Below, in pieces: positions 28,510 through 46,681 of a stretch of 64,000 nucleotides of DNA. This DNA is from a virus: positions 32,001 to 96,000 of IMG/VR virus record IMGVR_UViG_3300042882_001046; one strand, 5' to 3'. The position numbers were made by a program, and so were the translations under genes. The notes beneath the pieces are model-generated. The model did not search any database. It was not told the origin of the DNA and was given only the letters and a program-made list of their open reading frames with translations. Within the stretch, counting starts at the first letter, position 1; each line of letters starts with the position of its first letter.

Positions 28510-28932
28510 GGGGATGAAATGGTATCGATTGGCATTGTTGGGGATAAGTGGCACGTAGTCAGAATTCATCTATGACTTTAATCTATGGTGAAGACAATTA
28601 GCTGGCAATACTTTTGCTAAGATGGCGACTTTAGGTTTAACTAGAGAAGCTTCTGTTGTAGCTGCCTAAGAGGTAGTCACAACCGTTACTCCAACCAAGT
28701 TGGTGTAACCTCGGGTCGATTAGGACGTTAACCTAGGAACAGAAGTCCAATATACGGGTCACAGGTCAGAGCTCGTTTAAAATAATTCTGAGACCAGGTT
28801 GTTTGTAAGTTTGGTTCCCACATACATCAAACTTAATATTTCGGAACGTTGAGAAACAACGTTGTACTAAACGTGTAGTCATTTATTGTCAAAGTGAGCA
28901 AGACGCGGGTTCGACTCCCGCCATCTCCACCA
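28510..28932 (+). ncRNA. ssrA: tmRNA
   Basis: Acceptor GGGGATG/CATCTCC-A-CCA with G3.U70, T-arm GCGGGTTCGACTCCCGC, tag ORF ending ...VAA-TAA (28604-28669), TACCTTTG promoter element at 28483. Confidence 0.92.
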
Positions 28933-38023: not shown

Positions 38024-38064
38024 TATTGGTCTTTTTTATTTATGTCTATGATATTTATTTCAAT

Positions 38065-39942
38065 ATGAGCATAGATAAAAAAATCTTAGAAATCTACAAT
38101 CAGATTACCGAATCACAAAAGTCAATTATAAAAACGATTGGTTTAAATGAAGCCGCTTTGGAAGCTCCATTAGATACTGTAAGAGTAAATTCTGGTTTTG
38201 GACCAAGATGGGGTAGATTACATAATGGTGTTGATTTAGCTGCGGACGCAGCAAATGTTAAATCTCCTGCGGATGGTGTTGTTGACATTGCCGCAATCAA
38301 AAATGATGATTGTGGAGGTACTATCATGATTAATCATGCTGACGGTTATAAATCAGGGTATTGCCACATGCAAAAAATTAATGTAAGAGCAGGTCAAAAA
38401 GTTCAAAAAGGTGAAGTAATCGGAATTAGTGGTGGTGGTCCTAATGACCCTGGTAAAGGTAGAAGTGATGGTAGACATTTACATTTTACTTTAAGAAAAG
38501 ATGGTCAAGTTGTTGACCCTATGAATTTTATTGGCAAAGAAGGTATTGTCATGACAGGAAGTACCCCTGAATCCTCGTCTAAAGCATCAGAAGATGCGTA
38601 TGATTATGCAACGTCTAAAAATAAATCCACAACAAGTTCATCACCAAAATATGCTGAGGTTGTTGGTACAGTAACAAGTGCAGAAGGAATGAACGAAGAA
38701 ATACAAGAAATTTTAAAACTTTACGATATAATTCTTAAAGAAGCCTCTTCCGCAAGTAGTGAATTATTTGGTGGTAATAACGTAAAAATACCTGTAGACG
38801 GGGCTCACGCAGGTCAATCAGGATGGCAAAGTAATAATGCTTGGGATATTGCGGCACCCGTAGGTACACCTGTTTATGCATTAGCCGATGGAGTTGCCCA
38901 AACATTTTCAGACTATGGAAGAGAGGTTAGAGCAACCCAAGGAAAAAAACTTTACGGTCAAAGTTTTACAGTGAAAAGTGACGGAGGTCTTCCAAGTATT
39001 TATTACACACATTTGGAAGGCTCACCTGTAACAAAAGGAGCAACAATCAAGTGCGGTCAATTTTTAGGTTATATTATGGATTTTCCTAATAGTAGTTACG
39101 ACCACGTTCACATTGGAGTTGAGACTGGAAACATACGACAGTTTTTGAATGATGATGGTACAATGAAATGTGCAAAAGGTCAACAAATTACTGGAGGAGA
39201 AATTAGTAATTCTCCTTCTACTGATGACGCATCATCAAAAGCGTATGATTATGCCGTTAGTAAACAATCTTCACAAACATCATCAAGTATTCCAAAATAT
39301 GCAGAAGTTGTTGGGACTGTGACAAGTGCCGAAGGGTTGAATGAGCAGAGAAATTTTGGTAAAAATATATCAAACAGATATGGTAGGGTTATAATTCCAA
39401 AAGATGATAATCCAAAAATTAAATCTCCAATATCTGGTGTTATTAACAATAAAAAGTATTTTTCGGGTTGCGCAAATCAATTAACTATTGAAAATAATGA
39501 CAACGGAACTGTTTATTTACAATATTGTGGTATATCAAATGTAAAAGTTAGTAATGGTAGGAGAGTAAATGTTGGTGATGTATTAGGTACTACTGATTCG
39601 GATGTAGAAGCTATTATGTATGATAGTAGGTGGAATAGAATTAATATTCCTTCTAAGGATTTAAAAATAGATAAAAAAGAAAAGGATAAAGAAGAAGAGG
39701 TAGATAAAACAAGAAAAAGTTCTGACCCTGAGTATTTTGACCCTCTTATGGCATCTATTATGGGTATTCCAGGTAAATTGTTTCAAGATAAATATGATAA
39801 GTCAGGTAACAGAACAGAAAAAAGATATGGTGGTGTTGCCGACAAACAACAAGTAGACCCATGGGTTTTAAATTTCTTAAAAGACCCATTCAATAGAAAA
39901 AAGGTTAATGAAAATATAGAAAAAATTAAAAAGATGTTATAA
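38065..39942 (+). CDS. Multi-domain M23 peptidase (two intact domains plus one degenerate)
   Basis: HNGVD/Y.H/HLHF, then H..NAWDI/YYTHL/HVHIG, then a third domain without the Zn ligands; start moved to 38065. Confidence 0.85.
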   Translation: MSIDKKILEIYNQITESQKSIIKTIGLNEAALEAPLDTVRVNSGFGPRWGRLHNGVDLAADAANVKSPADGVVDIAAIKNDDCGGTIMINHADGYKSGYCHMQKINVRAGQKVQKGEVIGISGGGPNDPGKGRSDGRHLHFTLRKDGQVVDPMNFIGKEGIVMTGSTPESSSKASEDAYDYATSKNKSTTSSSPKYAEVVGTVTSAEGMNEEIQEILKLYDIILKEASSASSELFGGNNVKIPVDGAHAGQSGWQSNNAWDIAAPVGTPVYALADGVAQTFSDYGREVRATQGKKLYGQSFTVKSDGGLPSIYYTHLEGSPVTKGATIKCGQFLGYIMDFPNSSYDHVHIGVETGNIRQFLNDDGTMKCAKGQQITGGEISNSPSTDDASSKAYDYAVSKQSSQTSSSIPKYAEVVGTVTSAEGLNEQRNFGKNISNRYGRVIIPKDDNPKIKSPISGVINNKKYFSGCANQLTIENNDNGTVYLQYCGISNVKVSNGRRVNVGDVLGTTDSDVEAIMYDSRWNRINIPSKDLKIDKKEKDKEEEVDKTRKSSDPEYFDPLMASIMGIPGKLFQDKYDKSGNRTEKRYGGVADKQQVDPWVLNFLKDPFNRKKVNENIEKIKKML

Positions 39943-40724: not shown

Positions 40725-40725
40725 G

Positions 40726-40799
40726 TTGGAATAGATGGATTCGAACCATCGACATCTACCGTATCAGGATAGCGCTCTAACCAACTGAGCTATATTCCA
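40726..40799 (-). tRNA. tRNA-Ile(GAT)
   Basis: Canonical cloverleaf; loop CTGATAC. Confidence 0.93.
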
Positions 40800-40804
40800 A
40801 TGTG

Positions 40805-40974
40805 CTGTAAGGGAAGGAGTCGAACCTTCAAGAGGAGATTCAATTGATAACACAACGCTTGCAAGCTGGTGGTCTACCCCATATTATCAATCTATTTCTT
40901 TGTCCCCGCCCCCGAGACAGGAGGGTGCGTATGCCAAGGTCATAACTGAGACAACCTAATTTCGCCACCTTACA
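40805..40974 (-). ncRNA. Giant (170 nt) tRNA-like RNA with GTC (Asp) anticodon-like loop
   Basis: Acceptor TGTAAGG/CCTTACA-G, T arm GAAGG-TTCGACT-CCTTC, stem CCCTC-CTGTCTC-GGGGG, plus structured inserts in the D-loop and variable region. Confidence 0.75.
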
Positions 40975-40979
40975 ATTTG

Positions 40980-41066
40980 CGGAGGAACAGGGATTCGAAC
41001 CCCAGATACCCTTTCGAGTATGCCAGTTTTCAAGACTGGTGCAATCAACCGCTCTGCCATTCCTCC
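40980..41066 (-). tRNA. tRNA-Ser(TGA)
   Basis: Cloverleaf with long variable arm; loop CTTGAAA. Confidence 0.93.
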
Positions 41067-41070
41067 AAAT

Positions 41071-41170
41071 AAAAGTGTTTTGGTCAACCACTCGCTACCC
41101 ACCGCAGTATGACGATTCCCCCTGTGGTCATCGTACTTACGCCTAAGCCTTGTCCGTTGTAAACACTTTT
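41071..41170 (-). ncRNA. Candidate 100-nt structured RNA between tRNA-His and tRNA-Ser
   Basis: Perfect 10-bp closing stem AAAAGTGTTT/AAACACTTTT with a GC-richer folded interior. Confidence 0.5.
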
Positions 41171-41250: not shown

Positions 41251-41320
41251 TTGCGTGTATGAGGTTCGAACTCACTTGACCTTCCTTATGAGAGAAAGTT
41301 CTTTCCCACTAAGCCACGCA
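41251..41320 (-). pseudogene. Degenerate tRNA with CAT anticodon
   Basis: Intact T arm and CTCATAA loop, but ~3 nt are missing at positions 7-9 and the D arm is short. Confidence 0.6.
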
Positions 41321-46605: not shown

Positions 46606-46681
46606 TGGCGGTCCCGACGGGATTCGAACCCGTATCTCGCACCGTGACAGGGTGGAATTGTAACCATTCAACCACGGGACC
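46606..46681 (-). tRNA. tRNA-Asp(GTC), CCA encoded
   Basis: Cloverleaf; loop CTGTCAC; ends in GCCA. Confidence 0.92.

Follow-up and report, generated by a model that had tools for sequence, protein, structure and literature searches.

Few tRNA-shaped RNAs are known to use the tRNA machinery for anything beyond codon reading. The tRNA-Gly species that Staphylococcus uses for peptidoglycan bridges are encoded by extra genes, charged by the normal synthetase and kept out of translation, and tmRNA and the viral tRNA-like structures are aminoacylated and do not decode. The long arms of class II tRNAs, tRNA-Sec and allo-tRNAs are simple hairpins of about 13-22 nt, and the first pair of bacterial tRNA-Ser is G1-C72. 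tRNA-Asp is rejected by GatCAB on account of an extra D-loop nucleotide. U1-A72 is the determinant for the recognition of tRNA-Asn and tRNA-Gln by bacterial GatCAB (PMC4206432), and a review lists G73, G34, U35, C36 and C38 as strong determinants of Asp identity, five in all, that are conserved in evolution (PMC9976931). Here we describe a 170-nt RNA whose acceptor end resembles that of tRNA-Asn and whose anticodon loop resembles that of tRNA-Asp except at position 37. It belongs to an uncatalogued family common to Cytophagales bacteria and their phages, and we found no description of this family in the literature.

A tRNA-like RNA gene within a phage tRNA array

The window, by which we mean the whole stretch of 64,000 nt that was analysed, comes from an IMG/VR virus record of 118 kb whose completeness CheckV puts at only 39%, and its source is therefore probably a jumbo phage. 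On the minus strand there is an array of 23 tRNAs in which all 20 amino acids are represented (ARAGORN, Rfam). Within it lies the tRNA-like RNA gene (40805..40974, minus strand; element position p corresponds to window coordinate 40974-(p-1)), whose 5' end is 4 nt from tRNA-Ser(UGA) (40979..41066, minus strand) and whose 3' end is 5 nt from tRNA-Ile(GAU) (40725..40799, minus strand), both neighbours being called by ARAGORN and Rfam. The gene is matched over its full length (189 bits, E = 4.5e-52) by R1, a covariance model of the family built from alignment A1 (see below), and an R1 search of the 64,000-nt window returned no second copy. The ordinary tRNA-Asp(GUC) of the phage, which the first-pass annotation of this DNA had reported to be present elsewhere, was found at 46606-46681 (ARAGORN/Rfam scan). 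A full-length phage tmRNA lies at 28510-28932 on the plus strand (RF00023, 98.6 bits; ARAGORN tag peptide GNTFAKMATLGLTREASVVAA), and no genes for AspRS, GatB or Asn synthetase were found in the phage fragment, the record being about 39% complete.

The element received no tRNA call from ARAGORN and had no RF00005 match at the gathering score or at E <= 10. None of the described families in Rfam 15 matched it even at E <= 10; the YrlA model gave just a 20-bit partial match across the T arm (E = 1.6) and the tmRNA model gave none.

Between tRNA-His and tRNA-Arg, the minus strand at 41251-41320 holds a tRNA-like sequence that is sub-threshold for RF00005 (24.7 bits, cut-off 29) and was passed over by ARAGORN. 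An acceptor stem, a T arm and the loop CUCAUAA, giving the anticodon CAU, can be made out by eye, and the sequence may be a second Met or an Ile2-type tRNA whose D arm is weak. The 104 nt that separate tRNA-Ser(UGA) from tRNA-His (41067-41170, minus strand) form a long terminal helix (z = -2.1) and include GGUUGACCA, a sequence similar to the family's P3 motif GGGUUGACCAC; this spacer could be a further small structured RNA. A 638-aa ORF immediately upstream of the array (38026-39942, plus strand) has repeated segments, with ...SKAYDYA.SK...PKYAEVVGTVTSAEG... present twice.

Phage homologues and covariation

When IMG/VR was searched for exact occurrences of the 24-mer of T arm and acceptor, 10 loci were returned, each of which has the whole element, and a second scan, for the part of the arm that is conserved best (ATATGGGKTWGACCAC), returned at least 86 element-bearing matches (86 of 120 among the matches listed). 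Sixty-five distinct copies from uncultivated phage contigs were aligned as A1. In this alignment 94.9% of the cells are standard pairs and 37 of the 51 pairs are changed on both sides, which amounts to strong covariation of the kind that the first-pass annotation had proposed to look for; none of 500 shuffled controls reached the observed value, and only 39-54% of cells were paired when the partner strands were slid. The covariation, together with the two controls, means that the element is more than chance, and we regard its being a real conserved RNA as virtually certain. A fold energy close to that of shuffled sequence is common among tRNAs, and the fold energy of the window copy is indeed no better than shuffled (z = -0.16), which leaves the case for the element to the comparison of homologues.

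A blastn search of INPHARED (GenBank phages) gave nothing but short matches between the T arm and ordinary tRNA-Asn genes, and the arm had no homologue there. Twenty-five of the 65 phage copies stand directly after a tRNA (21 after tRNA-Ser, 4 after tRNA-Cys) and the other 40 are solitary. The phage copies have no constant protein neighbour, the commonest cluster being present in 17 of 65 loci and without a Pfam match; subsets of the loci have an RNase H-like protein, a PD-(D/E)XK nuclease or a 2'-5' RNA ligase-like protein nearby.

The cloverleaf core

The core of the RNA is a four-arm cloverleaf, with a 7-bp acceptor stem, a D arm with G18 G19, a 5-bp/7-nt anticodon arm and a GUUCRANYC T arm, and all four arms are present, on the minus strand, within the coordinates given by the first-pass annotation. 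In the acceptor stem, UGUAAGG (p1-7, 40968..40974) pairs with CCUUACA at 40806-40812, which is followed by the invariant discriminator G73 at 40805 (3' strand with discriminator, 40805..40812); in the 65 phage copies 100% of its cells are paired and covariation is seen at 6 of 7 pairs, the first three pairs and G73 being the strictest-kept part of the stem. U8 and G9 follow the 5' strand in the window copy. The D arm (40927..40965) has a GCG/CGC stem (p10-12 with p46-48) that is 97.7% paired, with covariation at the two outer pairs (GC/AU/UA and CG/UA) and an unvarying G-C at the third pair, G12-C46, in 63 of 65 copies; the D-loop of the window copy keeps G18 G19 (GGCA). The anticodon-like arm (40909..40925) consists of the stem CCCUC/GGGGG, which is 100% paired with covariation at 5 of 5 pairs, and the loop CUGUCUC (p55-61, 40914-40920), which in the window has GUC at 34-36, U37 and C38. 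The T arm (GAAGG-UUCGACU-CCUUC, p146-162, 40813..40829) has a canonical GUUCGA.UC T-loop, and 4 of 5 pairs of its stem covary. The base after G73 is C in the window copy, as in 65 of 65 phage copies. CCA is not encoded in the window copy and is encoded in only 5 of 65, and it would therefore need post-transcriptional addition.

The branched arm and the D-loop insert

The variable region (79 nt, p67-145, 40830..40908, minus strand) is made up of C67, a basal helix P1, an internal loop, a helix P2, a three-way junction with P3 and P4, and UU. P1 (p68-72 with p139-143) is 95% paired with covariation at 3 of 5 pairs, and the 10 bp of P2 (p84-93 with p123-132) are 98% paired with covariation at 7 of 10. 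Of the folds first proposed for this region, the helix AUUGAUAA/UUAUCAAU and the palindrome GCUUGCAAGC are present in the window arm. The third, GGGGA/UCUCC, has to be corrected: GGGGA pairs with UCCUC, a register fixed by the homologues, which covary at this helix (GGUGA/UCACC in most copies, CGCUG/CAGCG in the phage copy L007). The asymmetric internal loop, GAAAUAG opposite GAAUC, is nearly invariant across phage copies; in the window its 5' strand is CAAAGAAAUAG (40892..40902, minus strand) and the partner strand is UGAAUC (40837-40842). The P3 hairpin UGGGG-UAGA-CC(A)CCA (p94-108, 40867..40881, minus strand) is the most conserved stretch of the arm, with GGGGU.GACCAC invariant in phage copies save for a compensating loss in L007, where one G and one C are missing together.

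P4 (p109-118, 40857..40866, minus strand) is the perfect 10-nt palindrome named above. A perfect 10-nt palindrome stands at this place in 61 of 65 phage copies, in 9 different sequences with a centre that is always UGCA or GGCC, and all four pairs covary. A hairpin loop of 2 nt is infeasible, yet the fourth pair covaries (U-A to G-C), which suggests that P4 may pair between two molecules, i.e., serve in dimerisation. When hammerhead, k-turn, tetraloop-receptor and UAA/GAN motifs and riboswitch consensuses were compared with the arm by eye, none fitted.

The structured D-loop hairpin that repeats UGUCUC, also noticed at first pass, is a 21-nt insert (AGGUUGU-CUCAGUU-AUGACCU, p18-38, 40937..40957, minus strand). 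An insert is found here in 48 of 65 phage copies, 26 of them with the UCUC-loop type of the window; it is missing in the remaining 17 of 65 and was seen in none of the 40 bacterial copies inspected. The D-loop hairpin is thus an optional expansion, seen only in phage copies. In several phage lineages (e.g., L005:4455-4613, L007:5212-5368 and L030:1474-1643) the D-loop insert, too, reads as a perfect palindrome (GUUCUAGAAC, GACCUAGGUC, GCUUAAGC, GCAAUUGC and the 20-nt GAUUGACACGCGUGUCAAUC), and therefore the RNAs of those lineages carry two self-complementary sites; either selection for intermolecular pairing or a template-switch mutation bias could have produced them.

Identity marks and decoding features

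The positions that are invariant in the 65 phage copies include G2, U8, G9, G18, G19, G34, U35, C36, C38, C71 and G73, and G10 is not conserved. All five Asp determinants are among the invariant ones, which bears out the earlier remark that Asp identity elements are kept. The G2-C71 pair is present in 65 of 65 phage copies, and U1-A72 in 64 of 65 phage copies and 40 of 40 bacterial copies. In the bacterial copies, G73 is found in 40 of 40 and the full set of five Asp marks in 35 of 40, G34 being replaced in the other five (CUC, UUC, AUC). G1-C72 and the loop CUGUCAC are found in the ordinary tRNA-Asp of the phage, and U1-A72 and G73 in its tRNA-Asn.

The anticodon-like loop is CUGUCUC in 50 phage copies, UCGUCUC in 9, CCGUCUC in 3, and UUGUCUC, CUGUCCC and CAGUCCC in 1 each; in bacterial copies it is CUGUCUC in 27, CGGUCUC in 8, CUCUCUC in 3, and CUUUCUC and CUAUCUC in 1 each. 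In phage copies position 33 is thus U, C or A, and positions 32/33 vary among CU, UC, CC, UU and CA; in bacterial copies position 33 is U or G. Position 37 is U or C everywhere, so that the U33 and purine 37 of elongator tRNAs are not kept across the family. An unconserved U33 together with a pyrimidine at 37 makes ordinary decoding unlikely, and the RNA is likely to be non-decoding. We would rather expect than doubt that the RNA is aminoacylated at all; the chances of charging by AspRS are slightly below even, and action of GatCAB on it would be unlikely. With respect to the extra D-loop nucleotide, the numbering of the element is ambiguous, and a whole hairpin is often there in phage copies.

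Chromosomal copies in Cytophagales

R1 matches were obtained in 70 of 101 sampled Cytophagales genomes; the match in one of them (G046) is an ordinary class II tRNA, R1 also matching class II tRNAs weakly, which leaves 69 of 101. Scores in these 69 genomes range from 56 to 117 bits, all but one being at least 67, and the copies lie inside long chromosomal contigs, often 2-6 in tandem. An even sample of the phylum yielded the RNA in 7 of 80 further genomes of other Bacteroidota (R1). An exact-pattern scan of bacterial genomes returned only five short contigs, from metagenome-assembled genomes of Cytophagales and Bacteroidia. The first-pass proposal of a tRNA mimic is supported as regards a tRNA-shaped RNA that is unlikely to decode (positions 32/33 vary and 37 is a pyrimidine), and it is not supported as regards a decoy invented by the phage, since the family is chromosomal in 69 of 101 Cytophagales genomes and looks like a host gene of housekeeping type.

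The bacterial copies keep the UGU...ACA-G acceptor end, an insert-free D arm, the CCCUC-loop-GRGGG arm, P1, P2 and an internal loop, which here reads GGGAUAA opposite CUAAC. The apex of their arm is variable, being a plain hairpin in the shortest copies (108-114 nt), and some copies carry GGGUUGACCAC at the place of P3. Elaboration of the RNA by P3, P4 and the D-loop hairpin is therefore seen mostly or only in phage copies.

At 24 of 31 bacterial loci the RNA is divergent from an AsnC-family regulator. This AsnC-like protein scores 179 bits, against a cut-off of 227 for the NCBIfam AsnC model, and is followed by sufB in 13 loci (within the stretch fetched). We considered this neighbour as a clue to asparagine and rejected it, because the regulator stays with sufB where the RNA is missing: in the RNA-negative genomes G042 and G058, a 61%-identical regulator lies directly upstream of sufB, an RDD-family gene lies at the RNA site, and R1 found nothing in the suf loci even with filters off. 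The regulator therefore belongs with the suf operon, and the RNA merely occupies the adjacent site. As the family is chromosomal, often tandem and at a conserved host locus, the phage gene is the copy of a host RNA that functions in the cell.

Co-occurrence with GatCAB and asparagine enzymes

Among the 101 Cytophagales genomes, gatB was found in 92, an AsnB-type synthetase in 93 and GlnRS in 38, and AsnRS was present in 15 of 15 genomes of a subsample. GatCAB was present in 69 of 69 RNA-positive genomes (gatB in 68, gatA in G089), which is a weak test in a set where GatCAB is near-universal (gatB in 92 of 101). G089 carries the RNA, with an ORF adjoining it in the asnC-like gene position; because it has gatA, its gatB is probably missing from the assembly, and it was counted as GatCAB-positive. 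All 9 genomes without detected gatB have GlnRS. With G089 set aside, the RNA was found in 0 of 8 GatCAB-negative genomes (gatB not found); in G042 and G058, the two of these in which gatA was looked for, gatA, gatB and the RNA are all absent. Among GlnRS-positive genomes, the RNA is present in 27 of 30 with GatCAB versus 0 of 8 without it; the Fisher p of 3e-5 is uncorrected for relatedness and was calculated from the counts before G089 was reassigned (26 of 29 versus 1 of 9). Six of the 8 GatCAB-negative genomes are of 1.5-1.7 Mb and G042 and G058 are alike; the 8 probably stand for about two independent losses, and the co-occurrence is therefore weak once relatedness is considered. There are also 24 GatCAB-positive genomes without detectable RNA.

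AsnRS and AsnB being widespread, these bacteria do not obviously require another way of making Asn, and the idea that the RNA is the sole route to asparagine was rejected on the same counts (AsnB-type synthetase in 93 of 101, AsnRS in 15 of 15). A dedicated second AspRS was not found in 5 RNA-positive genomes, and each of 10 genomes tested, with or without the RNA, has a single bacterial-type AspRS. Separately, the gatA match of G068 (G068:C15:658002-659411) has an in-frame TAA stop, in a genome with gatB, GlnRS and no detectable RNA; this gatA may be decaying, or the stop may be a sequencing error. In three other genomes (G104:C5, G079:C6 and G086:C111) a gatB-like domain (337-362 bits) lies inside an open frame of about 1120 aa, apparently an unusually long, fused GatB paralogue.

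Proposed explanation and alternatives

The best explanation we can offer, put forward tentatively and with somewhat less than an even chance of being right, is that the element is the phage copy of a host RNA that would be processed like a tRNA, probably aspartylated, and not used for decoding. The element would be co-transcribed with the tRNA array, excised by RNase P and the 3' tRNA-processing enzymes, and supplied with CCA by the CCA-adding enzyme. The host's single AspRS would load aspartate onto it, as the retention of all five strong Asp determinants suggests, and the RNA would stay out of decoding owing to the lack of a fixed U33, the pyrimidine at position 37 and the great size of the arm. 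U1-A72, which is near-invariant and a mark of GatCAB substrates, suggests that the attached Asp may be amidated to Asn on the RNA by GatCAB, a link that is possible and weakly supported. The phage's own copy would keep the host process running during infection.

The internal loop, P3 and the palindromic P4 are not accounted for by such an AspRS/GatCAB model. There is also a wider reading, which we think unlikely in its entirety: the RNA would be a dedicated non-decoding scaffold on which Asp loaded by the housekeeping AspRS is converted to Asn by GatCAB off the ribosome, a particle, either dimeric or protein-bound, would be maintained through the large arm and its self-complementary P4, and phage versions would keep or redirect the pathway during infection.

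One alternative is an uncharged RNA that binds protein or has a regulatory function, for which the tRNA shape would provide processing and stability and the arm would be the binding site for another RNA or a protein; the phage version could serve to titrate a factor of the host, e.g., AspRS, a tRNA-modifying enzyme or an anticodon nuclease, which is the decoy idea. The most conserved stretches outside the core (GAAAUAG and AUAUGGGGUAGACCAC) lie in the arm and are unexplained by aminoacylation, P4 is a perfect palindrome in 61 of 65 copies with many sequences, as expected of a self-pairing (dimerisation) site, a second UGUCUC hairpin has been added to the D-loop of many phage copies, and 40 of 65 phage copies are solitary, outside tRNA arrays. 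The strictest conservation, however, is at acceptor pairs 1-3 and G73, which is typical of 3' ends read by enzymes. Many bacterial copies have a variable apex (P3, P4) or lack it, and it therefore cannot be the core function of the family, and tandem chromosomal arrays at a conserved host locus argue against a purely anti-defence role. We consider this alternative unlikely, yet it is the one that survives best.

A class II-type tRNA charged by SerRS, which would carry serine for tRNA-dependent conversion or transfer as tRNA-Sec does, is a good deal more doubtful. SerRS ignores the anticodon, which leaves the invariant G34, U35, C36 and C38 unexplained; U1-A72 contrasts with the G1-C72 of bacterial tRNA-Ser, and the arm is branched and 4-5 times longer than any tRNA-Ser arm. 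On the other side, 21 of 65 phage copies stand directly after tRNA-Ser, R1 matches class II tRNAs weakly, and the element has both features by which SerRS recognises its substrates, a long variable arm, although here branched and of 79 nt, and an invariant G73 (PMC7609411).

That the element is a genuine decoding tRNA-Asp, used as it is or after removal of both inserts, seems very improbable, even though it has GUC in a 7-nt loop, a full cloverleaf and a site inside a tRNA array, and even though size alone is no bar to decoding, as class II arms point away from the ribosome. U33 is missing in 14 of 65 phage copies and replaced by G33 in 8 of 40 bacterial ones, position 37 is always a pyrimidine, other bases occur at position 34 in 5 of 40 bacterial copies, and the phage already has an ordinary tRNA-Asp. 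We know of no bacterial mechanism that splices a variable loop, and the arm is conserved in sequence and structure, unlike a discarded intron. Finally, a decaying tRNA pseudogene or a chance fold, in keeping with a fold energy of z = -0.16 and the absence of calls by tRNA finders and Rfam, is refuted by the compensatory changes in every helix of 65 phage and at least 40 bacterial homologues, and its probability is negligible.

Significance and comparison with known systems

If expressed, the family would be a large and widespread addition to the few tRNA-shaped RNAs that use the tRNA machinery for other ends, since at least 65 distinct copies occur in phages, and about two-thirds of the sampled Cytophagales have it on the chromosome, often in several copies. 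The Asp and GatCAB identity marks could bear on why some bacteria keep GatCAB beside AsnRS and GlnRS, and the wider scaffold reading, if true, would explain the retention of GatCAB in bacteria that already have both. Phage tRNA arrays can evidently hide genes that are missed by tRNA finders and Rfam, and the existence of both bacterial and phage versions makes the family easy to test.

With the bacterial tRNA-Asn of the indirect pathway (non-discriminating AspRS and GatCAB; PMC4206432), the element shares U1-A72 together with G73, and among the genomes sampled it occurs only in those that bear GatCAB. As with that tRNA, AspRS would charge it with Asp by reading the anticodon loop, and its charged product would have to be kept from EF-Tu and the ribosome. 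It differs in having the anticodon GUC instead of GUU, a pyrimidine at 37, an unconserved U33 and a 79-nt branched arm, and its host genomes also have AsnRS and AsnB. With canonical tRNA-Asp(GUC) (RF00005) it has in common the cloverleaf, G73, G34-U35-C36 and C38, the loop of the phage tRNA-Asp (CUGUCAC) differing from that of the element (CUGUCUC) only at position 37; in contrast, the element has U1-A72 in place of G1-C72, a giant arm, a D-loop insert and variable positions 32/33. The non-proteinogenic tRNA-Gly species of Staphylococcus are, unlike the element, of normal size and shape, and no partner transferase was found for the element.

Class II tRNAs, tRNA-Sec and allo-tRNAs (PMC5389517, PMC7609411) share with it a long extra arm and G73, and some allo-tRNAs have irregular anticodon loops as the element has. 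It is set apart from these, whose arms are far shorter, by the internal loop and three-way junction of its 79-nt arm and by its normal 7/5 acceptor/T arrangement. In general design the element is comparable to tmRNA, YrlA (Y RNA-like) and the plant-virus tRNA-like structures, which likewise combine a tRNA-like module with extra structured domains, but in contrast to them its cloverleaf is whole and its anticodon arm is intact.
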